IMG/VR virus record: IMGVR_UViG_3300044961_000667
Source: a virus
Taxonomy: Duplodnaviria > Caudoviricetes
Direction: 5' to 3' (one strand)
DNA: 64,000 nt
This document shows positions 7,698 through 60,958 of this stretch, piece after piece; position 1 is the first letter of the stretch; each line of letters opens with the position of its first letter. Position numbers and translations under genes: made by a program. The notes under the pieces were generated by a model. The model ran no database searches. It worked only from the letters and a program-made list of their open reading frames with translations, and was not told where the DNA came from.

Positions 7698-10600
7698 TCA
7701 GCCTTTGACAGGAAGCAGCGGAGCCCAGTTGTCCTTCGCGCCTGGCTCTTCCTTCGGCCGCATGGTCTCGCCCTTCTCGTTCCTCGGGAGAACCCAGTCG
7801 ATGTCCTCGACAGTGGCGTCTCGGTACTCGCTGATGCCAGGGGAGGCAACCAGCGGCTGGGGCGCCAGCCTGGTGGTCAACGACATCGTCACACCGGCGA
7901 GTCCGTCGGCAACGTCTTTCGACCCATCCTGGGGGTGATCGACCTTCTTGCGCTTCGGGTTCCACTCCAGTTGCCGCAACTCCTTCTCCAAGTGCGGGAA
8001 CGGCAAACAGTCGAACCGCTCCTCGTTGATCGCGTTCTTCAGCAGATCGTACGCGTCCGACGAGGAGTCGACCGACAACACCTCCGCCTTGTACCCCTTC
8101 GAGTTCAGGTTCTGCCTCATGTCGGCGCTGTTGTGCGACATGAAACCGTTGGCCAGATAGGACGGATCGTCCTCTACCTCCAAGTCGAAAACATCAGCTT
8201 CACCATCAGCCTCAACGCTCACCACCCTCGCGAAGATTCTTCGTCCGACAACACCAACATGCTTCTCAAGCTCAACCTGCTTGCGGGAGTACGAGAACCC
8301 AATCCTCTCCAGGAACTTCCGCCTGGCGCCACGTACTCCCACCACATACTGGACACCATCCTTGACGTAATCGCCTGGGTGTCCTCGCTCCATGATCACC
8401 AGTTTCGACTCGATGCCAAAGTCACATCGCAGCATCAACCTCACCTGGTCGGCCAGATCCCGATGCTTCGTCGACAACGAAACGTAGCCGTCCAATCGCC
8501 CAACATTTCCGTCGGTCGCGAACAGGCCCCTCAGGAATGACGCCTTCACGGCACGACTACCCCTGAGCACGGCCTCCGGAACAAGAGGTTTTCGCAGGCC
8601 ATTCTGCTCCATCCATCTCACCAGCCACCGAGCACTCACGGACACAGTCCCGAACCCAGCCCCGTCTACACCGCGATACTCTGGCGCCACACCAAACAGC
8701 CTCATGAATACAGCCTGGGCATCGACAGCCTCGTCGTCGGTGACGGTTAGCCTGACGGAGTCTTCGCCGATATTTCCGTCGCCCCAAACGAGACCAAGCC
8801 ATTCGGCCAGGGCCGGTCCCATCCGAACCGGAAGCGACCACTCCGAGAGCACACCTGCGCGAGCAGGACTCCAGCCGAGGTCTCGCTTGTCACCGACCAG
8901 CTCAACATCGGGCGCGTCCATCTCGACAGGCGACGACGCCATCCGCACCACGTCGCCTGCGCGAATCTCGTCCAGCCTACGCCACTCCCAGATTGGTTCG
9001 CGAGTCCAACCAAATTCGGATTCGCTCTCAGGCCCCCATCCAACTTGCACCTCAATCCGGTGTCGCCCGGTGCCGACCAAGCTGTCTCCGTCGGCCGTCG
9101 ACAATTTCAGTACCGGCTGTCGACCAAAGGCCCAAACATTCTTCACTGGTTTTGGCCCTGCGCGCGACTGAACTATGTCGCCAATCAGGACTTCCTCGAT
9201 CGGCAACAAGCCGCGGCTTGTGCTCACTCTCGTTCCAGCAGCCAAGCACTGGTACGTGTCCATCGTCACCAGCCCGATGTGGAAACCGTGCTCGGTCAGC
9301 TCGTAGATGAGGCGCCGCACTTCGGCCATCGGGATCTCCCCCCGGTCCGGCGGAACGATGCGCAGCGCCAAGTCGATCACGATGAACGGAACCATCTCCT
9401 TCGACTTCTTGCCGCTCGACCAGTTCGTCCTCACCACCTCGACCATCTTGGCGACGTGCCCCATCGCGAAGCCGTACGAGTCGTCAGAAAGCGCAGGGTC
9501 GAGATGGATGTGTCGCTGCGCGTCGGGATTGAACCGCGGCTTGTAGCTCAACAACGTCTTCCCGTTGACCGACCGACGCTGACGCTCCACGCACAACGCC
9601 GACCAATCGAGGGCCAGCGGCGTGGTGGGATCCCACTCCAAGCCTCCCGGCCGCGGCATGGGGCGCTTCGACGACAGCGCCTTGATGATCTTCTCCTTGT
9701 TCCTGATGTACGGCCGAATCGAGTCGGTCGCGATGCCGGCGATCTCGCGAAGCGAGCCGTCCAGGTCCTCCTCGAAGTCTGAACGAAAGTCGATCGGCAC
9801 CTCGATGATGCGTTGCTTGCCTTGAGCGACGGTGTCGGGCACCGGCTCCGAATCAGCAAGCACTCGGCTCGACACGTCGTCGGTCCCGATGACGACACGG
9901 AACTTCTGATCGCTGTACTTCTTGACGTCCCACAGCGCGTACTCGCGAACGAAGATGCGCGGGTTGTCGGCCGACTCTCGGATCTTGCGCTCGGTGAAGT
10001 CGGTCGTGCCCTTCTTCGACGAGATCGTCATCAACATGCCTGGCATCTGGCCACCACGCAGGAAGCGGGACTTCATGCGGCGCAAGATGCTGGAGTACAG
10101 CTGCGAGCCCTTGTCGATGTGCCCCCACCGCGCGTGCGACGCCTTCTGCTCGCGGGTGAACGACATGAAGTTCGTCTCGTCGATGGCTGCACCAAAGACG
10201 TTTCGACCGATGACGCTGTTGTCGGCGGACGACGCCGGCACCGCCCAGATGTTCTTCGGAAAGCGAAGCGCCTCCATCGAGCGGTGACACTTGAACTTCT
10301 CGTTGAAGTACGGGCTCACGATCAGCTTCTGCGCGAGGCCCTCCAACAGCGTCGCCATCGCCGTCTTTTCGTTGACGCTGATGCCGGCGAACACGATCTC
10401 AGAACCAGAAGCCAACCCGTACGAACGCTGCGGGTTCCTCAGGCAGCTCATCTCGTAGATCTGCCGAGCGATGACGATCTCGGCGAAGGTCGACTTGCCC
10501 CAGCCGATGGCGCCGCCGAGGACGACCTCGTGGTACGAGCCAGTGAACAGCTCGACGACGTCCTCCTTCAGCTTGGGCCACAGGCCCTTCGCGACTTCCC

Positions 10601-10841
10601 CGAAGTAGTAGTCGTCGTCGAGCCAGGTGCGGACGTCAACAACCTCGCGCTCGTACTCCGCTTCAGAGGCCAGCTTCAGGAGCGTCTTCACCCCATCCTG
10701 GGTTTCCTGCGCCTCGCGAAGAATGGTCTCGACAAAGACCTTCTCCTCCGGAGTCAGATCCTTGTAGTCGCTTTCGAGGAGCTTGATGTCCTCCTGCGGC
10801 GTACGAACGCTGATCTGTCTGCCACCGATGTCGACGATCAT
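7698..10841 (-). CDS. terL: Terminase large subunit, intein-containing
   Basis: Walker A GGAIGWGKS, Walker B FGAAIDE, nuclease motifs HIHLDPALSDD and KKVDHPQDGSKDVADG; upstream of portal. Confidence 0.93.
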   Translation of the reverse strand: MIVDIGGRQISVRTPQEDIKLLESDYKDLTPEEKVFVETILREAQETQDGVKTLLKLASEAEYEREVVDVRTWLDDDYYFGEVAKGLWPKLKEDVVELFTGSYHEVVLGGAIGWGKSTFAEIVIARQIYEMSCLRNPQRSYGLASGSEIVFAGISVNEKTAMATLLEGLAQKLIVSPYFNEKFKCHRSMEALRFPKNIWAVPASSADNSVIGRNVFGAAIDETNFMSFTREQKASHARWGHIDKGSQLYSSILRRMKSRFLRGGQMPGMLMTISSKKGTTDFTERKIRESADNPRIFVREYALWDVKKYSDQKFRVVIGTDDVSSRVLADSEPVPDTVAQGKQRIIEVPIDFRSDFEEDLDGSLREIAGIATDSIRPYIRNKEKIIKALSSKRPMPRPGGLEWDPTTPLALDWSALCVERQRRSVNGKTLLSYKPRFNPDAQRHIHLDPALSDDSYGFAMGHVAKMVEVVRTNWSSGKKSKEMVPFIVIDLALRIVPPDRGEIPMAEVRRLIYELTEHGFHIGLVTMDTYQCLAAGTRVSTSRGLLPIEEVLIGDIVQSRAGPKPVKNVWAFGRQPVLKLSTADGDSLVGTGRHRIEVQVGWGPESESEFGWTREPIWEWRRLDEIRAGDVVRMASSPVEMDAPDVELVGDKRDLGWSPARAGVLSEWSLPVRMGPALAEWLGLVWGDGNIGEDSVRLTVTDDEAVDAQAVFMRLFGVAPEYRGVDGAGFGTVSVSARWLVRWMEQNGLRKPLVPEAVLRGSRAVKASFLRGLFATDGNVGRLDGYVSLSTKHRDLADQVRLMLRCDFGIESKLVIMERGHPGDYVKDGVQYVVGVRGARRKFLERIGFSYSRKQVELEKHVGVVGRRIFARVVSVEADGEADVFDLEVEDDPSYLANGFMSHNSADMRQNLNSKGYKAEVLSVDSSSDAYDLLKNAINEERFDCLPFPHLEKELRQLEWNPKRKKVDHPQDGSKDVADGLAGVTMSLTTRLAPQPLVASPGISEYRDATVEDIDWVLPRNEKGETMRPKEEPGAKDNWAPLLPVKG
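8130..9248 (-). mobile_element. Intein (373 aa) with LAGLIDADG homing endonuclease in terminase
   Basis: Starts CLAAGTRV after TMDTYQ and ends YLANGFMSHN before Ser (+1). Contains WLGLVWGDG and FLRGLFATDG motifs. Visibly more A/T at third codon positions than the flanks. Confidence 0.95.
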
Positions 10842-11576: not shown

Positions 11577-11594
11577 CGCGCAATCGATTGCGCG
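11577..11594. promoter_or_regulatory. Perfect 18-bp palindrome CGCGCAATCGATTGCGCG (copy 1 of 6)
   Basis: Read directly; 12 nt upstream of the terS start. Confidence 0.85.
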
Positions 11595-11610: not shown

Positions 11611-12021
11611 CTACTTCTCGGACAGCCCGAGTTCCTTCAGCGCCTGTTCGAGCGTACCACCGTCCAGCAGCGCAGCCATTCTGGTGGCATCGCCGACCGT
11701 CGGTTCTGCTCCCGGCTTCCTGGGCTTCCAGAACAGCCTGTCGCCGATCTGCACCAGCTCCTGGTGGTGCGTCTTCACGAAGCGCAGGAGGCCGCAGTCG
11801 CACAGCTTGACCTGCTTGTCTGCGTCACCGCCCTTGCCCAGGACCGTGAACGCACCCTTGCCGAAGCACCGTCGACAGCCCTTCTTCGCGGAAAGGGCTA
11901 CCTCCGCCGGCTTGACTGGCTCCAGATCGTTCAGCCCGACTCCCAGGGAGTCTCGGACCTGCTGGTCGAGCTTCTTGTAGGGCTCGGGCACTTCAGGCGC
12001 AGCCTGCTCGGGGGTGTTCAC
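11611..12021 (-). CDS. Small Cys-containing (CRRC...CDC) putative zinc-binding protein
   Basis: GTG 12021 overlaps the ParB stop (GTGA). It is the C-terminal 136 aa of track ORF 11611..12636. Confidence 0.65.
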   Translation of the reverse strand: MNTPEQAAPEVPEPYKKLDQQVRDSLGVGLNDLEPVKPAEVALSAKKGCRRCFGKGAFTVLGKGGDADKQVKLCDCGLLRFVKTHHQELVQIGDRLFWKPRKPGAEPTVGDATRMAALLDGGTLEQALKELGLSEK

Positions 12022-12848
12022 GCCGCCGCCTCCGGGGCCGGCTTCTCTTCCGCGGCAGCCGCCACCGGCTCCTTCGGCAGATCCTCGACGTCCTTCTCCC
12101 AGTCCTTGAGCACGCGGTGCAGGAACTGGTTGATGTCGACCTTCGCCTTCATCGAGCGATCGGCGATCGCCTTCGCCTGCTTGAACGTCTCGGCGTCGCA
12201 CGCGATGTAGAGGTGCTCCTTCGAGCCGTACGTGAACACCATGAAGTTCTGCGTGATGGTGTCGCCGTACTCGTTGAAGAGGTGGTTCAGCACCGCCGAC
12301 AGATCGTCGATGGTCTTCACCTCCTTCTTCATCTCGTCGAACTTCTCCAGCATGTCGCCCGACAGCCCCGTGCTCTCCAGGGCCTCGCGGACTCCGCCGA
12401 CGAGCTTCTTGAAAGCCGCCTCGTCGGTGAAGCCCATCAGGTTCTGCATGGCGTCTTCGCCGTACCGCTGAGCCAGCTCGTTGTAGAGGCCGACCATCCT
12501 CTCGGGATCGAGCTTGCCCTTGATGACGTTGAGGCGGACGGTGACGAACTTCTGAAGGTCCACGTCCTTCCACTTCGTCTCCGACAGGACGGCCACCGGC
12601 ACCTCGGCGATGCCGAGCGACTTCGCTGCTCGCCACCGGTGCTCACCACCGATGATCCTGAGCTTCCCGTTCTCCATCGGGATCGCCTGGATCTGGTCGA
12701 TGAACCCGACGTTCGAGATCTCCTCCGCGAGCCGATTGAACTCGCGGTCGCTCATCTGGTTCGGGTTCCAGGGGTTCGGTTCCAGCTCGTCGACCGGCAC
12801 GAGCTTCGACACGTACACCTGGGGGATGTGGCTGTTCGTCTCGCTCAT
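12018..12848 (-). CDS. ParB/Sulfiredoxin N-terminal domain protein
   Basis: VPVDELEPNPWNPN...IIGGEHRWRAAK...VPV motif; C-terminal half not recognised. Confidence 0.88.
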   Translation of the reverse strand: MSETNSHIPQVYVSKLVPVDELEPNPWNPNQMSDREFNRLAEEISNVGFIDQIQAIPMENGKLRIIGGEHRWRAAKSLGIAEVPVAVLSETKWKDVDLQKFVTVRLNVIKGKLDPERMVGLYNELAQRYGEDAMQNLMGFTDEAAFKKLVGGVREALESTGLSGDMLEKFDEMKKEVKTIDDLSAVLNHLFNEYGDTITQNFMVFTYGSKEHLYIACDAETFKQAKAIADRSMKAKVDINQFLHRVLKDWEKDVEDLPKEPVAAAAEEKPAPEAAA

Positions 12849-37421: not shown

Positions 37422-38210
37422 TCAGAAAGCCTTGTTGCCGTGCTTGAAGCCGCGCGCCCGGTTCTTCTCCAGCTTGGCCGCCACGATGCTCCACATGCGG
37501 TTGGCCGGGTCGAGCTTGTCGCACAGCGCCTCGCAGTCGACGATCAGCCGACCGAACTCTCGCTGCATCTCCTGCGCGTTCGGCGTCTCCGGCTTCCGGT
37601 ACGCCTCCATCAGCCGGAACGACGGCATCACCACCAGCCGCATCACCTGGGCGTAGAAGTGCTCCATCGAGAAGAGCCGCAGGTCGCGCTCCACCTTGTG
37701 CACCCCGACTCGCGTCAGCCCCGTGATGTTGTAGTACGCCAGCTGCGGATTCATCTCCAGCTTCCGCATCAGGTGCAGCACCCGAATCACCACGTCGGCG
37801 AACTCGATCTGCATCCGCTTCACCCACTCCGCCGTCGGCACCGGCTCACCATTCTCGCCGACCTGGCCGACCTCGAACTCCTCGCACGCTTCCGACGCCT
37901 CGCTGGCGCACAGGGCGAACTTCATCCCCAGCTCCAGCTTGTTGCTGAGATCGATGGTCCACCCGTTCATCTCGTTCACTTCCGTCACTTCGTTCGCGAT
38001 CTCGACGAGATTCACGCCAACGGTCGATTCGTTCTGCACTGGCACCTCCAGAGGATGTTGGACTTCCCACGGGAAACAACGAGCCAGCTGCGGGAAGGTC
38101 AGCCGGCTCAACATCTCGTTCTGTTGAGCCCTGCTGCTCCGCGAGTACAGGAGCTTCAGCTGCTCATCCGAGACTGCGCTCAGGTCCTGGGAAGCGTCTT
38201 CTTGGCCCAT
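37422..38210 (-). CDS. MazG-like (all-alpha) nucleotide pyrophosphohydrolase
   Basis: ALCASEASEACEE...IEFADVVIRVLHL...AAKLEKNRARGFKHG. Confidence 0.75.
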   Translation of the reverse strand: MGQEDASQDLSAVSDEQLKLLYSRSSRAQQNEMLSRLTFPQLARCFPWEVQHPLEVPVQNESTVGVNLVEIANEVTEVNEMNGWTIDLSNKLELGMKFALCASEASEACEEFEVGQVGENGEPVPTAEWVKRMQIEFADVVIRVLHLMRKLEMNPQLAYYNITGLTRVGVHKVERDLRLFSMEHFYAQVMRLVVMPSFRLMEAYRKPETPNAQEMQREFGRLIVDCEALCDKLDPANRMWSIVAAKLEKNRARGFKHGNKAF

Positions 38211-41080
38211 GGCCCGTTGACGACTACGGAATCCTCCGCGCTGTCAACGTCCTCGGGAGCCTCCGCATCAGCCATCTGCTCGTGCAGCTGGCCGAGGACT
38301 TCCGGGTCGAACGCCTCCGCGAGGAAGCGCGAGGGCTCGATGAAGCGACCGAACTTCTCCTGCACATGGGACAGGTGGACCTTGTCCTTCGCCCGCGTGA
38401 TGGCCACGTAGGCCAGCCGCCTCTCTTCCTGAATCTTGTCGGCCGCCATCGACTTGATGTGCGGCAGCATCCCTTCGCCCCAGCCCACGCCGAACACCCA
38501 CGTGAACTCCAGGCCCTTGGAGCGGTGGATCGTCATCAGCTTCACGGTGTCGCTGGAGAGCTGCGCCTCCTTGTCCTTCACCGTGCTCGCCTCGGCGATG
38601 AACTCCATGAACTCCTCGTACGTCCCGTACTGGCGAGCGATCTCAATCAGCTCCCGCACGTTCTCCGCCCGGTCGCTCACCACCTCGCCGCCCCGTTCCT
38701 CCGGCCGCTCGTAGTGCTGCTGCAGCGTCTGGTCGGGGTGCACCGTGCCGCGAACGTCCAGGATGTCCTCGATGATCTCCACCGGCGTCATCGCCTTCAA
38801 CGAGCGCAGGTGGGCGATGTCGTTCGCCAACGACCTGGCGCCACGCTCCATGTACGGCCGGCTGAAGCGACCGTTCAGCGTGCGCAGGGCATCACCGGTG
38901 CGCCCCTTCGCCGCCCGGTACTCGTTCCACCACGCCTTCCCGAGGTACCGCGGCGGCGTGTTGTACGCCCGCTCCAGCGCATCGTCGTCGTTCGGGTCGC
39001 CGATGAGCTTCAGGTACGCCACCACGTCCATGATCTCCGCCCGCCCGAAGAACGGCGCCGAGCCGTAGATGATGTACGGGATCCCCGTCTTCCGGAGCGC
39101 ATCCTCCACCGGCGCCGACTGGTAGTTGCTGCGGTACAGCACCGCGAAGTCCTTCGGCTTCATCCCGGCGTCGAGGCCAGCCTTGATCTGGTCCTTCACC
39201 CACTGCGCCTCAGCCCCGGTGTCTCGGTGAGACACGATCACCGGCTGCACGCCCTCCTCCCGCTGGGTGAACAGCTCCTTCGGGATGCGCTCGGTGTTCT
39301 TCTCGATCAGCCGATTGGCAGCCCGAACGATGACGTTCACCGAGCGGTAGTTCCTCGCGAGGAACAGCTTCTCGACGTTGGGCCGCTCCGCGAACTCCAG
39401 CATGAACTGCGGGACCGCGCCGCGCCAGGCGTAGATGCCCTGGCAGTTGTGCGTCACAATGCCGTCGGCCACGTAGGTGTGATCATTCTCAACCGTCAAC
39501 GAGTACACCGGGCCGCTGTACGACTCGTGCCTGATGACGAACGGAACGTACAAACTTCCGGTCACCCTGCTTCCATCCACCGACACCGCTTTCGACAGCG
39601 GCAACATCTCCATCCCGTCGAACAAGTTAACAGCCCGAACCACAGTGGGTCGGCGCGTCTGCAGATAGGCTTCGCCTTTCTGCCAGAGCGGATAGTTCAC
39701 ATCCTTGCGGTGGGCCGTCAACGCAGCCGCCGCTGCGTTCCGGTTGCTGCCCAGTTTCGACCAGAAGGCATCAAGCTGATCTTGGCTCAGTCGCAGATCG
39801 TTGGTGCTCGCCCTGAAGCACAAAGTCGGAACACCGAACGACCACGCTGTAACCATCTCGGCGAGAGCCGCCTGGTCTCTCGTGTCGTGAACGCTGAGAA
39901 TCCAAACCGCATCAGCCTTTTCCTGGTTGGCCCGGAGAACCACTCCAATGCGCTTGTGCTGGCTGGCCATTCGACCACTGGTGATGCCGATCCGGTAGTC
40001 GTCGCCGCGCCGCATCATGTAGACAACGTGTTTCTTCAACAGCTCGTCGCCAAACCGAACAACGCAGTGATGGTTCGGCGTGTACCGAGACTCCAACCCG
40101 TCCGGCGTACGAACAACAACCAACTCGCCGACGTGAGGCTTCACCATCACCCTCGACACCACGGAACCAGTTCTACGCAGATGGCTGTGCGCCATATCGT
40201 AGCTCACTACAACGTCTCCCTCGCGCACCTGCTCGATTGGCACCTGCTTCATCTCCGTTGGAACACCTTGCTTTCCCCGTCCCAGCGACTTGTACCGCTG
40301 CGTCACCACCGTCACCATCGTCCCCGGCGGCTGGCAGTCGTCGCCGATCATCATCAGGTTGCCGTCCTTCGTCGCCACCAGCTGAGCCAGCTCGATCTGC
40401 GCCTTGTTGTTGTCCTGGCACTCGTCGACCATCACGTAGCGGTAGCGCTCACGGACCTCCGCCCGCAGCCGCTCGTTCGACGAGAGCAGCTTCCACGCGT
40501 AGTAGAGCATGTCGTCGAAATCGAGCACCCGCTCTTCGTTCTTCCGCTTCTCGTACAGCGAGTAGAAGTCCGACATCGACGTCGCCTGGTGGTCGGACAG
40601 CAGCTGCTGCCGCATCTCCTCCGGGCCCATCAGCGAGTTCTTCGCCTTCGCGATGGCGATGATCACGTCCTCCGGCAGCCACTCCTCCGTGCGGTAGCCG
40701 AGGTCCTTGATGACGTTGATGATCATCGTCTTCTTGTTCTTCAGCACCGTGTAGCCGCCGTACCCGTTGTTCCGCAGCAGCGAGAAGCCGAAGCTGTGGA
40801 ACGTCGAGATCGTCGGCCGGCGCCCTCTCACGCCGAGGTTCTCCATCAGGTCGTCGAGGCGACCGTTCATCTCCTCCGCGGCGTTCTTGGTGAACGTCAC
40901 GGCGAGAATCTGGCTGTCGGGGATGCCGCGGGCGAGGAGAGCCACCACGCGGTGGATCAAGCACCTCGTCTTCCCCGCGCCTGGGCCGGCAATCACCAGG
41001 CACGGTCCATCGAAGTGCTCCGCCACCTTCTGTTGGGCCTCGTCGAGACCCGACAGAACCTTCTGCAGATCGTTGCTCAT
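38180..41080 (-). CDS. uvrD: UvrD/PcrA SF1 helicase, intein-containing
   Basis: AGPGAGKT, VTFTKNAA, STFHS, VDECQD, GDD[intein]CQGIYAWRGA, NYRS, TIHRSKGLEF, EERRLAYVAITRAK. Start MSNDLQ after GGAG. Confidence 0.93.
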   Translation of the reverse strand: MSNDLQKVLSGLDEAQQKVAEHFDGPCLVIAGPGAGKTRCLIHRVVALLARGIPDSQILAVTFTKNAAEEMNGRLDDLMENLGVRGRRPTISTFHSFGFSLLRNNGYGGYTVLKNKKTMIINVIKDLGYRTEEWLPEDVIIAIAKAKNSLMGPEEMRQQLLSDHQATSMSDFYSLYEKRKNEERVLDFDDMLYYAWKLLSSNERLRAEVRERYRYVMVDECQDNNKAQIELAQLVATKDGNLMMIGDDCQPPGTMVTVVTQRYKSLGRGKQGVPTEMKQVPIEQVREGDVVVSYDMAHSHLRRTGSVVSRVMVKPHVGELVVVRTPDGLESRYTPNHHCVVRFGDELLKKHVVYMMRRGDDYRIGITSGRMASQHKRIGVVLRANQEKADAVWILSVHDTRDQAALAEMVTAWSFGVPTLCFRASTNDLRLSQDQLDAFWSKLGSNRNAAAAALTAHRKDVNYPLWQKGEAYLQTRRPTVVRAVNLFDGMEMLPLSKAVSVDGSRVTGSLYVPFVIRHESYSGPVYSLTVENDHTYVADGIVTHNCQGIYAWRGAVPQFMLEFAERPNVEKLFLARNYRSVNVIVRAANRLIEKNTERIPKELFTQREEGVQPVIVSHRDTGAEAQWVKDQIKAGLDAGMKPKDFAVLYRSNYQSAPVEDALRKTGIPYIIYGSAPFFGRAEIMDVVAYLKLIGDPNDDDALERAYNTPPRYLGKAWWNEYRAAKGRTGDALRTLNGRFSRPYMERGARSLANDIAHLRSLKAMTPVEIIEDILDVRGTVHPDQTLQQHYERPEERGGEVVSDRAENVRELIEIARQYGTYEEFMEFIAEASTVKDKEAQLSSDTVKLMTIHRSKGLEFTWVFGVGWGEGMLPHIKSMAADKIQEERRLAYVAITRAKDKVHLSHVQEKFGRFIEPSRFLAEAFDPEVLGQLHEQMADAEAPEDVDSAEDSVVVNGPWAKKTLPRT
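39446..40336 (-). mobile_element. Intein (297 aa) in UvrD motif III with a GIY-YIG-like central domain
   Basis: Starts CQPPGTMV and ends DGIVTHN before Cys (+1). Central VYMMRRGDDYRIGIT...QAALAE; no LAGLIDADG motif seen. Confidence 0.9.
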
Positions 41081-41137
41081 TTGCTCTCCCTTGGTGCCAC
41101 CTGTTGCCCGTTGAGTGTCGGGGTCACCACCAAGCAG

Positions 41138-41171
41138 ATGAAACCACCGTTTCTCCTGCTTTGTCAAGAGG
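41138..41171 (-). promoter_or_regulatory. CCTC-TTGACA-18-TTTCAT promoter upstream of uvrD
   Basis: -35 at 41162-41167. Confidence 0.55.
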
Positions 41172-47681: not shown

Positions 47682-49043
47682 TCAGTTGAGGATGTCGGAG
47701 AGCCGGGCGGCGGGCGGCGTGGTGCCGCGCTCCACCAGCGACATCACGATCGTCGACCACATCTCCTCGATCACCTTCTGGTGCTCGATCGTGGCGTCGC
47801 CAGACTTGCTGCGCTCGTGAGCCATCTCGTGAACGAGCGTCTCCAGCGTGTCCTTCACGGTCTTCAGCATCTGACGACCGACCAGGATGTGCTCGTTCTC
47901 GCGCAGCCCGTGCAGCGACGGGTCCTTGAACTCCGCGATGCGGAACCGGCTGAGCGGCACGTCCGGCGCCCCGAGCGAGGCGAGAGCGAACGCCTTGAGG
48001 AACACATCGCTTTCCTCGGTCGTCAGGTCGCTGACGCCGAAGGTCGCCGAGATCAGGTTCTTCGAGTCCGACTTCACCGTGTTGATGGTGCCGGTCTCCT
48101 CCTTGAGCACCTCCAACATGGCCTCAGGGACGACGATGCCGCGCTTCCCGTAGAATGCAGCCTCCTCCATCTCCTGCGGCTGACGGACCGGGATCGCGTT
48201 CTCACCGAACGTCTCCCGGAAGCGGGCGGCCATCTTCTCGCGGAGCTTGTTGCCGGTGTTCCACGTGTACCGGAGGTGCTCGACGTCGGGCTTGTTCTCG
48301 CGCATCAGGCGGTCGACCATCTCGATCAGATCCGGCCGCAAATCGACGGCCTCGTTCCAGATGGTCGCGGTCACGTTCGAGAGATCCCAGCCGTCGATGA
48401 GCCGGCGGTCGCGGTCGATCTTCGCCACGTTGGGCGGCAGGTCGTAGCCGCAGACGTAGTTGCCCACCTGCTGGACGAAGATGCCGCCCACGTAGATGTG
48501 CCCACGCTTCGACTCGTCGAAGATCACCGCGCCCTTGCTCGTGGCCACCGTGTCAGTCGCCGCCAGCAGGAACAGCAGCTTCCGCTGCAGCGACTCCCAG
48601 TCGGCCGGCTCGACGTCAGCCACCTCGATCTCGATGGCGTTGCGCTCCTTCACGACGCCCTTCTGCACGTCGATGACGAGCACCATCTCGCCGCCGAACT
48701 TCTCCGAAGGGGCGACCTCGGGCACCCACTTGTCGGCGCCAGTGCGGATCACCGTGCGATGCCCACTGTTCACCAGCGCCAGCAACGCCAGCTTGTAGCC
48801 CTCGCCGAAGCGGCCGAGCTGGTCGGTGCGACCCCGCTTGGACGTGTACCCGACGAGCAACGTCCGCGGCTCCAGCGTGGCCCCCTTGGTCACCAAGCGG
48901 ACCATCTTGTCCTTCTCGACGTAGGTGACGGAGAACTCGTGCCCGTCCTTCTTGGCATCGAGGCCGTTCTGCATCAGCTCGCGGATCGCCTCCCAAAGGG
49001 ACCAATCAACGTAGTTCTTGCCAATGGTCATTTCGATTTTCAT
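47682..49043 (-). CDS. GHKL (HSP90/MORC-like) ATPase with C-terminal HExxH motif
   Basis: AIRELMQNGLDA, GRFGEGYK, C-terminal TLVHEMAH. Start MKIEM overlaps the upstream stop (ATGA). Confidence 0.8.
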   Translation of the reverse strand: MKIEMTIGKNYVDWSLWEAIRELMQNGLDAKKDGHEFSVTYVEKDKMVRLVTKGATLEPRTLLVGYTSKRGRTDQLGRFGEGYKLALLALVNSGHRTVIRTGADKWVPEVAPSEKFGGEMVLVIDVQKGVVKERNAIEIEVADVEPADWESLQRKLLFLLAATDTVATSKGAVIFDESKRGHIYVGGIFVQQVGNYVCGYDLPPNVAKIDRDRRLIDGWDLSNVTATIWNEAVDLRPDLIEMVDRLMRENKPDVEHLRYTWNTGNKLREKMAARFRETFGENAIPVRQPQEMEEAAFYGKRGIVVPEAMLEVLKEETGTINTVKSDSKNLISATFGVSDLTTEESDVFLKAFALASLGAPDVPLSRFRIAEFKDPSLHGLRENEHILVGRQMLKTVKDTLETLVHEMAHERSKSGDATIEHQKVIEEMWSTIVMSLVERGTTPPAARLSDILN

Positions 49044-58834: not shown

Positions 58835-58867
58835 ATCATGCCAGACGATGCGTGTTTCGTCAAGAGG
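58835..58867 (-). promoter_or_regulatory. CCTC-TTGACG-17-CATGAT promoter
   Basis: -35 at 58858-58863. Confidence 0.75.
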
Positions 58868-58873
58868 CCGCGC

Positions 58874-59086
58874 TCACTCCCACTGAATGTCGCCCGGCTC
58901 AACCTTCACCGACCCGCCCTGCTGGCAGTGCCTGCAGAGGAAGTCGACGATGAACGGCGCTTCGTCGGCCTGCGTGGCCGACGTTGGATCTGCCTCGTGC
59001 TTCCCGTCGACTGCGACCTGGCAGTGCTCGTAGCAGGGAGGGGACTTCTTGCAGACCTTGCACTTCGCCTCGCTCTTCTTGCCCAT
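58874..59086 (-). CDS. Small zinc-finger protein
   Basis: CKVC...C..HC...CRHC. Confidence 0.6.
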   Translation of the reverse strand: MGKKSEAKCKVCKKSPPCYEHCQVAVDGKHEADPTSATQADEAPFIVDFLCRHCQQGGSVKVEPGDIQWE

Positions 59087-59096
59087 GGTCGTTTCT

Positions 59097-59162
59097 CCGG
59101 GTGTAGCGGTATTCAGGCTCGGACGTTCGCTCGTGGGCGGCTCTGTGCGGCAACGTCGCGCA
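59097..59162. repeat. ~66-bp dispersed repeat, copy A
   Basis: First 20 bp (ccgggtgtagcggtattcag) identical to 62532-62551; similarity continues to cgtcgcgca. Confidence 0.85.
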
Positions 59163-59165
59163 ACC

Positions 59166-59181
59166 GTGCAATCGATTGCGC
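59166..59181. promoter_or_regulatory. GTGCAATCGATTGCGC palindrome (copy 6)
   Basis: Intergenic, 4 bp from parS. Confidence 0.8.
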
Positions 59182-59185
59182 GACT

Positions 59186-59201
59186 CGTTCCACGTGGAAC
59201 A
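59186..59201. other. parS centromere-like site (TGTTCCACGTGGAACG on the minus strand)
   Basis: Perfect 14-bp palindrome GTTCCACGTGGAAC matching the bacterial parS consensus family; intergenic. Confidence 0.8.
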
Positions 59202-59204
59202 GCC

Positions 59205-59591
59205 TCAGTTGAAGTAGTCGCCGCCGGTCGCGAGCTTCATCTTCTCGGCGGCCTTGGACAGGACCCCGCTCAGCTCCGAGAAGACAGTCTCGTACTCGTC
59301 GCCGTAGATGACAGCGACGGCCGAGCCGTCGTTCGGCCCGATAGACGGCGCCGTACAGTACTCGCTGCCGCTCAGCTGCCCTTCGGCGTCCGCGTACTGG
59401 TCCGGCGTGACGAGGAAGCTGCCACACGCCCCGCGGTGCCAGAGATCCGAGCCCACCGTGCCGCTCGACATGCCGTAGGCGTTGAGGAACGCCTGCACGT
59501 CGGGATCCTGGAGCACCTCTTTCGGGAACCAGTGGATCACGCTGCTGCTGTTGGTGATGAAGCCCACGTTCACAACAAGTCGCATCTGCAT
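59205..59591 (-). CDS. Conserved hypothetical protein with N-terminal GFITNSSS motif
   Basis: MQMRLVVNVGFITNSSSV resembles the K(I/V)RxxFV(S/T)NSSS phage protein family; adjacent to the radical SAM gene. Confidence 0.65.
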   Translation of the reverse strand: MQMRLVVNVGFITNSSSVIHWFPKEVLQDPDVQAFLNAYGMSSGTVGSDLWHRGACGSFLVTPDQYADAEGQLSGSEYCTAPSIGPNDGSAVAVIYGDEYETVFSELSGVLSKAAEKMKLATGGDYFN

Positions 59592-59593
59592 CG

Positions 59594-60958
59594 TCAGTCC
59601 TCTCTCTCCGTCCTCATCACGAGAGCGAATCTCTCGCTGAACGGCTTGTTCTCTTCCTCGGTCAGCTTGCGGCCGAGCTTCTTCTCCAGATCCGTCATCT
59701 CCTTGATGACCTGGCGCATCTCCACGTCACGCTTGGCATCGGCCGTCAACGGCGGCTGGCCTCCGTTGTGCTCCGCGAAAGCGCAGGCGAAGTAGTGGTG
59801 CTTGCTCGGCGTCGCACACCGGTTGCGTTCGGCGCAGTCGTAGCACCGGCCTCCGTGTGCCTCTCCAGTGCGGAACCCGAAGCCCTTGTTCCAGACAGCC
59901 TGCAGCGACTCTCCTTCGAGCACCGACTTCGGGAGGAAGCGGCGCTCCTCCGGCGTGTCGTCAGGCTGCGGCTTGGCCGGCGGGTCGAACGAGCTGTGAC
60001 TCATCCGCCCACGCGGGTCGACGTACGCCGAGAACAGGCCCTCCGAGCGCGAAGCGAAGGTGGTGCTCACACCAATCTCCGGGCGGCTGATGAAGTACGG
60101 CAACAGCCCTTCGGAGAACGCGATCCGCATCTTCGCGTCGATCGCCCTCTTGAGCGCGTCCGGCAGCAACTTGCCGTACACCTCCTTCGACATGATGCGG
60201 CTCAGCGTGCCTCGCCCGACGTCGGGGTAGTACGCAAGCAACACCACGTTCAGCAGGCCGACCTTCTTCTGGAGGTCGACCAGGAGGTCGATGTTCTTCG
60301 CGACATCGCAGTCGGCGATCACGTGGACGTTGACCTGCACCCGAAGCGCCTTCCGCAGACGCGCGTAGTGCTCCTCGAACCAGGCGATGCCGCGGTGCGC
60401 ATGGAACGTCATCGCGATGCCGCCGCACACCTCGTTCGTGGCGTCGATCACGTCCTGGCGGAACAGGTGCCCCGCCGTCGTGTAGTTCGGGACCGTCCCC
60501 AACTCGCGAGCGCGGAAGAGCATCTCCGGGAGATCCGGGTGAGCCGTCGGCTCTCCACCGCCGATGGCGATCTGGTAGGGCGCGTGGGCGAACGACTTCA
60601 GCACGGTCTCGATGATCGACTTGGGCGCGTGCTTCTGGCGAGCCGTCGAGTCCTGGTAGCAGTACGTGCAGCCGAAGTCGCACCAGTCGGTGATGCTGAT
60701 GTCCAGGGTCTCAGGCGAGGGCGAAAACGCTTCCTCTCTCCACCCGAACTTGGCCTCCCACGCCTTCCGCAGACCCTCGTCGTACTCGCGACCGCCGAGC
60801 TTCCGGAACAGCTCGCTCCTCATCGTGTCGCCGTACGAGCGCCTGGTCTTCGGCTGGGCGAAACTCCGCACCAGCGTCCCCGTCGAGGGATCGAACGTCG
60901 ACTGGTAGAACACGACGCCCCGGAACTCGTTCTTCATCGACCGCAGCTTCGACATCAC
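59594..60958 (-). CDS. Radical SAM enzyme with SPASM/twitch-like C-terminal Cys cluster
   Basis: CDFGCTYC (CxxxCxxC), GGGEPTAHPD, C-terminal CYDC...C...C. Confidence 0.9.
   Translation of the reverse strand: MMSKLRSMKNEFRGVVFYQSTFDPSTGTLVRSFAQPKTRRSYGDTMRSELFRKLGGREYDEGLRKAWEAKFGWREEAFSPSPETLDISITDWCDFGCTYCYQDSTARQKHAPKSIIETVLKSFAHAPYQIAIGGGEPTAHPDLPEMLFRARELGTVPNYTTAGHLFRQDVIDATNEVCGGIAMTFHAHRGIAWFEEHYARLRKALRVQVNVHVIADCDVAKNIDLLVDLQKKVGLLNVVLLAYYPDVGRGTLSRIMSKEVYGKLLPDALKRAIDAKMRIAFSEGLLPYFISRPEIGVSTTFASRSEGLFSAYVDPRGRMSHSSFDPPAKPQPDDTPEERRFLPKSVLEGESLQAVWNKGFGFRTGEAHGGRCYDCAERNRCATPSKHHYFACAFAEHNGGQPPLTADAKRDVEMRQVIKEMTDLEKKLGRKLTEEENKPFSERFALVMRTERED

Follow-up and report, generated by a model that had tools for sequence, protein, structure and literature searches.

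What is a parS site of the bacterial chromosomal type doing in the genome of a large phage? Such a site might recruit the ParB of the host, serve a DNA-binding protein of the phage itself, act at the RNA level, or have arisen by chance. The question is raised by a 16-bp sequence found in 64,000 nucleotides of DNA from a virus of the Caudoviricetes (IMG/VR record IMGVR_UViG_3300044961_000667), a stretch that is called the window throughout. The DnaN protein of this phage was located on a contig of 200,091 bp, and the window covers about 96–160 kb of the genome of about 200 kb.

The sequence itself is an exact chromosomal-type parS. Read on the minus strand, which is the orientation of all confident neighbouring genes, it agrees at 16 of 16 positions with the parS consensus of Myxococcus xanthus, TGTTCCACGTGGAACG; a 50-bp probe with this consensus was shifted by ParB in EMSA (PMC3899335). 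With parS2/3 of Pseudomonas aeruginosa, TGTTCCACGTGGAACA (PMC4368675), it agrees at 15 of 16 positions, the one difference being a single flanking base. The 16-bp inverted repeat fits the chromosomal-type pattern TGTTNCACGTGNAACA and matches a perfect palindrome at 15 of 16 positions, and within it the 14-bp core GTTCCACGTGGAAC (59187–59200) is perfectly palindromic and occurs only once in the window. The site begins 3 nt past the TGA of the gene for a 128-aa protein, its other end is 99 nt away from the ATG of the gene for a 70-aa protein, and a palindrome of 16 bp that recurs in dispersed copies has one of them 4 nt from the site (Table 1). Thus, the preliminary description, which had called this a canonical chromosomal-type parS lying between genes on the minus strand and had named the variant as that of M. 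xanthus, is borne out on both counts, the published consensus being identical.

No clustering of sites and no linkage to parAB or to an origin are seen in the window, which holds this single copy and one weak near-match. The near-match, whose core starts at 48258, is the sole further core match at up to two mismatches in the window, where 0.09–0.22 are expected, and it is probably due to chance. GC skew is monotonic over the window. According to the title of a study in P. aeruginosa, one parS suffices for chromosome segregation in that organism (PMC4368675).

Table 1. Features of the window that bear on the parS site (positions are those of the window).
Feature	Position	Strand	Sequence or description
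Orphan ParB/Srx-fold protein P0003 (phrog_26387)	12018–12848	minus	upstream of terS/terL
Weak parS-like near-match	48257–48272		TGTTCCACGTGTACCG; intragenic, two core mismatches
Hypervariable patch with parS	about 58857–59305 (approximate boundaries)	minus	about 450 bp
70-aa Cys-rich (zinc-ribbon-like) protein	58874–59086	minus	first gene downstream of parS
Inverted repeat with 12-bp arms, predicted strong RNA hairpin	59155–59184	minus	overlaps the dispersed palindrome
Copy of the dispersed palindrome	59166–59181		GYGCAATCGATTGCGC, 16 bp; retained in the parS-less allele (L005)
Host-type parS	59186–59201	minus	TGTTCCACGTGGAACG (plus strand CGTTCCACGTGGAACA); intergenic
128-aa protein P0001, GF[IV]TNSSS family	59205–59591	minus	downstream of a radical SAM gene

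The phage has a GC content of 63% and encodes a T4-like portal protein, a bacterial-type DnaN and a radical SAM protein. It is present in hot-spring/microbial-mat, bioreactor, wastewater and biofilm data sets from 13 studies. A nucleotide search of the phage collection returned no cultured relative, and the portal is at most 35–37% identical to those of cultured phages (Microcystis and Flavobacterium phages). Inteins, recognized by matches to Intein_splicing and LAGLIDADG_3, are found in its large terminase (7698–10841) and in a UvrD-like helicase (38180–41167).

From the site alone, a myxobacterial host and possibly a plasmid-like state had been suggested at the outset, and neither suggestion is supported. 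A search of species genomes found the exact 16-mer in at least 120 stretches from many phyla, which among the matches listed include Bacteroidota, Acidobacteriota, Myxococcota, Planctomycetota, Proteobacteria, Actinomycetota and others; calling a host from the parS variant was therefore rejected. Loci of Myxococcus sp. Y35 and Corallococcus terminator carry 5–7 copies of the 16-mer clustered within 8 kb. The best cellular matches of the phage DnaN are just 32–34% identical to it, and several of them come from Myxococcaceae MAGs that stand barely above other taxa; host inference from the DnaN sequence is weak. As for a plasmid-like state, no ParA-type (deviant) Walker A motif is found in the window, no integrase is noted in a model-made annotation of the whole genome (78 notes), and the portal is T4-like.

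How readily would such a site appear by chance? The exact core is expected 2.3–2.9 × 10⁻⁴ times per window under iid and first-order Markov models, or about 10⁻³ times per genome. Palindromy alone is unremarkable here, since seven perfect 14-bp palindromes are counted in the window against about six expected from base-composition arithmetic. The half-site GTTCCAC occurs 18 times against 8.8 expected under the Markov model, and this enrichment is gone when codon usage is preserved by codon shuffling (15 against 11.6 ± 3.5). The central CACGTG is depleted about two-fold in the coding sequences of the window, with 9 copies observed against 18 ± 4.2 after codon shuffling; restriction-site avoidance could explain this depletion. 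A perfect 16-bp palindrome, GTTCCTCGCGAGGAAC, lies at 39350–39365 within the UvrD-like helicase gene and has GTTCC/GGAAC arms like those of parS around another centre. Because about 3 × 10⁻⁴ per window, taken over about 250,000 windows, yields chance singletons, the chance statistic alone cannot decide on function.

Strains and relatives of the phage show how the site is distributed. The parS-bearing allele is found in four independent samples, represented by L001, L002 and L004, which are identical to the window, and by L003, which is 99.2% identical. These strains are 99–100% identical to one another, so that retention of the site among them is uninformative on selection. A contig of 124 kb from another sample, L005, lacks parS despite an identity of 98.4% across the surrounding 12.6 kb: its gap is 12 nt shorter, and the dispersed palindrome, the hairpin and the downstream gene are all retained. 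The same parS-less allele is present in contigs of two runs from other studies (X7 and X8), which makes three data sets in total.

Farther relatives also lack the site. In the next relative, L053 (66% protein identity), no parS follows the 128-aa gene, and exact GTTNCACGTGNAAC is absent from eight IMG/VR contigs with the 128-aa family (130–437 kb, 2.48 Mb together); when one mismatch is allowed, these eight contigs give two parS matches against nine for a reversed control. Another 44 loci, which amount to about 0.56 Mb, gave none either, and all wider relatives scanned come to about 3 Mb. Conservation of parS among related phages is thus not observed in L005, X7, X8, L053, the eight contigs or the 44 loci. 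Of the two outcomes that the preliminary description had named as refuting its proposal, no binding by ParB and absence from the corresponding gap in related phages, the second is observed, the site being missing from L005, X7, X8 and L053. Since a sister lineage circulates without it, parS is dispensable, and its solitary, strain-variable and non-conserved character speaks against a role that is important or ancient. A 23-mer made of the site and its flanks, searched for in 185,579 species genomes as a test of a host-derived patch, has no match there.

The site lies within a hypervariable patch that spans the 3′ end of the 128-aa gene, the 118-bp gap and the entire 70-aa gene. Identity to L005 in 50-nt bins is 54–86% over 58857–59255, and rises to 94% in the edge bin 59256–59305. 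Identity between the two strain versions of the 70-aa protein is only 46%, and six Cys and two His do not vary; the protein has no match in Pfam, PHROG or NCBIfam. A search for its homologs, aimed at a cassette of parS plus gene, brought up no sequence beyond this protein and its L005 counterpart. The pattern of the 70-aa gene suggests a role in an arms race or in host interaction, with exchange through recombination. On the other side of the site, the P0001 family is characterized by an invariant Cys and YGDE, and its homologs are found in IMG/VR contigs of 130–437 kb; the radical SAM protein, used as a query against IMG/VR, gave no relatives. The radical SAM gene and the gene of the 128-aa GF[IV]TNSSS protein (59205–60958) are kept as a pair in L006 and L007, the two large-phage contigs (179 and 161 kb) whose gene maps were examined for it.

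A different picture is obtained when viral contigs at large are considered. The exact 16-mer is found in at least 117 IMG/VR stretches (L174–L290), which among the matches listed fall into 81 flank clusters. Two composition-matched controls (L291–L310) are far rarer: the mirror-image sequence is found in 8 stretches, and an arm-swapped one that keeps CACGTG in 12. The C-type 16-mer is therefore over-represented in viral contigs at least 7–10 times relative to these controls, on an IMG/VR count that is possibly inflated by redundancy and by misclassified or host-derived DNA. Among the matches listed, 50 parS-bearing records were checked; a provirus flag is carried by only one of them, ParB_N is encoded by only one (49 of 50 lack it), and the domain is missing from all 15 records with a completeness of at least 90%. 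By crude ORF calls, 22% of the IMG/VR parS sites are located outside ORFs, against a background of 13%. A host-type parS is therefore common, far above chance, among viral genomes that lack ParB, and this base rate argues against chance as the origin of the typical occurrence.

If the site is read by a ParB, whose ParB would it be? No element-encoded pair of ParA and ParB is found beside parS; the sole ParB-fold gene, P0003, lies 46 kb off, by the terminase genes. P0003 matches phrog_26387, a “ParB-like partition nuclease,” over its full length (E 2.7e-65), and its Pfam content is ParB_N alone; against TIGR00180 it scores 28 bits, where the cut-off is 58.45 bits. A profile built from 52 members of its family aligns to Noc through the helix-turn-helix region, in which the canonical signature is not conserved. 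An AF2 model of P0003 (pLDDT 86) is loosely like ParB, Noc and KorB (TM 0.3–0.44), aligns with them over 190–230 columns including the helical middle region, and matches the KorB structures 8qa8 and 8qa9. P0003 thus belongs to the orphan ParB/Srx-fold proteins, a kind that has been treated in a recent survey of mobile elements (PMC12704722). P0003 is probably not the reader of the parS, and because it is without the canonical parS-reading helix-turn-helix, the most likely reader, if any, is the ParB of the host. Loading of a phage ParB on the site, which had been considered beside that of the host protein, is accordingly disfavoured by what P0003 turns out to be, an orphan ParB_N protein.

A better candidate target for P0003, if it binds DNA at all, is the dispersed palindrome GYGCAATCGATTGCGC. 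Six copies are present in the window, at 11578, 22901, 35118, 46261, 52328 and 59166, where 0.07 would be expected. Two of them are located 12–13 nt ahead of a start codon, a third overlaps the start of the longest ORF of tmk, and the first (11578) lies 424 nt downstream of the P0003 gene itself. By analogy, P0003 and these copies may be paired in the manner of KorB and OB; alternatively, the copies may act as RNA hairpins at ribosome-binding sites.

We lean, tentatively, towards the explanation that the site is an accessory, strain-variable parS which recruits host ParB, and which is carried by one lineage of a virulent-type myovirus of about 200 kb. Canonical ParB in the host is an assumption of this explanation. 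In such a host, ParB dimers would read the 16-bp palindrome via the helix-turn-helix, and the parS-bound ParB would take up CTP, close to clamps and slide onto the adjoining phage DNA. The phage genome might thereby be marked as “chromosome-like” for ParA and/or SMC; alternatively, ParB might be soaked up during replication of the phage genome. These steps of CTP-dependent loading and sliding, engagement of ParA/SMC, or titration of ParB are drawn from the established biology of ParB. The contribution of the phage would be the cis site alone, P0003 being devoid of the canonical parS-reading module, and the site would be part of a fast-evolving cassette, immediately upstream of the hypervariable zinc-ribbon gene. 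Loading of host ParB was also the proposal of the preliminary description; the shift of the M. xanthus probe, the case of phi29 and the viral base rate make it plausible, and the absence of the site from the closest relatives counts against it.

Recruitment of ParB has to be weighed against a neutral origin, in which a non-coding stretch drifted into parS or acquired it with a 12-nt indel, and ParB would then bind incidentally without benefit. The local evidence sits well with this: the site falls within the 450 bp where the region is most divergent, a sister allele does without it, no relative scanned has one, some 6–7 perfect 14-bp palindromes per window are expected regardless, the half-sites are not enriched under codon shuffling, and by arithmetic dozens of singletons should arise over all windows. 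The expectation of only about 10⁻³ per genome weighs in the other direction, as does the depletion of CACGTG, which shows that local composition does not favour the core motif. Likewise, the excess of the 16-mer in viral contigs indicates that most viral occurrences are not due to chance. We regard a neutral origin of this particular site as a serious possibility, if on the whole a doubtful one.

Two further readings assign the site to the phage's own gene expression. KorB-type ParB proteins are transcriptional regulators. The site could accordingly be an operator for P0003 or for another DNA-binding regulator of the phage and control the 70-aa gene together with the adjacent palindrome, an arrangement to which its position ahead of that gene, the few nucleotides between it and a regulatory-looking repeat, the regulatory role of KorB-type proteins and the long structural alignment of P0003 with ParB, Noc and KorB all lend themselves. 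Yet an operator in a single copy, missing from a sister strain that retains both the 70-aa gene and the dispersed palindrome, speaks against such control; P0003 falls far under the ParB family cut-off and does not conserve the canonical helix-turn-helix, and the six-copy palindrome would be the better candidate for any target of this protein. We thus consider an operator improbable. A terminator or a processing hairpin at the end of the 128-aa gene, for which the palindromic sequence directly behind the stop codon might speak, is very improbable indeed. No terminator-like site was found and no T-run follows the palindrome, and the neighbouring hairpin with 12-bp arms dominates the minimum-free-energy fold predicted for the gap. 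In this fold parS forms no self-hairpin, and the one that it could form by itself has just 5 bp and a 4-nt loop; the RNA-level reading was rejected on the predicted fold and the lack of a terminator-like site.

Recruitment of host ParB, if it is the correct explanation for this locus, may have a more general side. It is possible, and we say so with reserve, that borrowing of host ParB by means of a parS is not confined to phi29-like phages of Firmicutes and is a widespread accessory strategy, gained and lost by large virulent-type phages of non-Firmicute hosts; the viral excess, the lack of ParB in nearly all of the records checked, and the existence of a near-isogenic pair of lineages fit this reading. 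If true, 16 bp would connect a large virulent-type phage to the ParB-CTP/SMC machinery of a non-sporulating host, probably a Gram-negative or high-GC one, and the principle of phi29 would reach beyond entrapment in the spore, for example to inheritance in a carrier state. Other uses would be to compact phage DNA once it is replicated, or to titrate ParB off the host origin. The co-circulating lineages with and without parS, which are distinguished in this region by some 450 bp of variable patch, would then amount to a natural experiment. Of wider reach is the lead given by the over-representation among viral contigs; the finding at the single locus is modest.

Comparison with known systems places the site closest to phi29, and host-type parS on a phage is, indeed, already known from there. 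A literature search on host ParB with bacteriophage found no report. For phi29, five parS sites are described, and host Spo0J is implicated in the sorting of the genome to the prespore (Meijer et al. 2005, as summarised in PMC2731898). phi29 (and Nf/B103) resembles the present phage in being a lytic-type phage without canonical ParB that carries exact copies of a host-chromosome parS, with host Spo0J/ParB as the proposed reader; the same combination of a host-consensus parS and no canonical phage ParB is found here. The two differ in that phi29 has five T-type (Firmicute) sites in a genome of 19 kb and a function linked to sporulation, whereas here one C-type site is present in about 200 kb and is polymorphic among near-identical strains.

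The chromosomal systems of M. xanthus and P. aeruginosa share the sequence with the phage, the 16-mer being the M. xanthus consensus itself, but chromosomal parS sites cluster near oriC and parAB, while the phage site is solitary and has no ParA/ParB operon. Plasmid prophages such as P1, N15 and the cluster A mycobacteriophages have their own ParA and ParB, element-specific parS repeats and a plasmid lifestyle. They are alike in carrying a centromere-like site on a phage genome; in contrast to them, the present phage shows neither a ParA motif nor a canonical ParB, nor any sign of lysogeny. The KorB-OB system of RK2, in which a ParB-family CTP clamp is combined with dispersed palindromic operators, offers a candidate likeness to P0003 and the dispersed 16-bp palindrome, and this likeness involves GYGCAATCGATTGCGC, some copies of which are near gene starts, and not parS. 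Set beside these systems, what is new here is the virulent-type context of 200 kb, the C-type variant, the paired lineages and the measured over-representation in IMG/VR.
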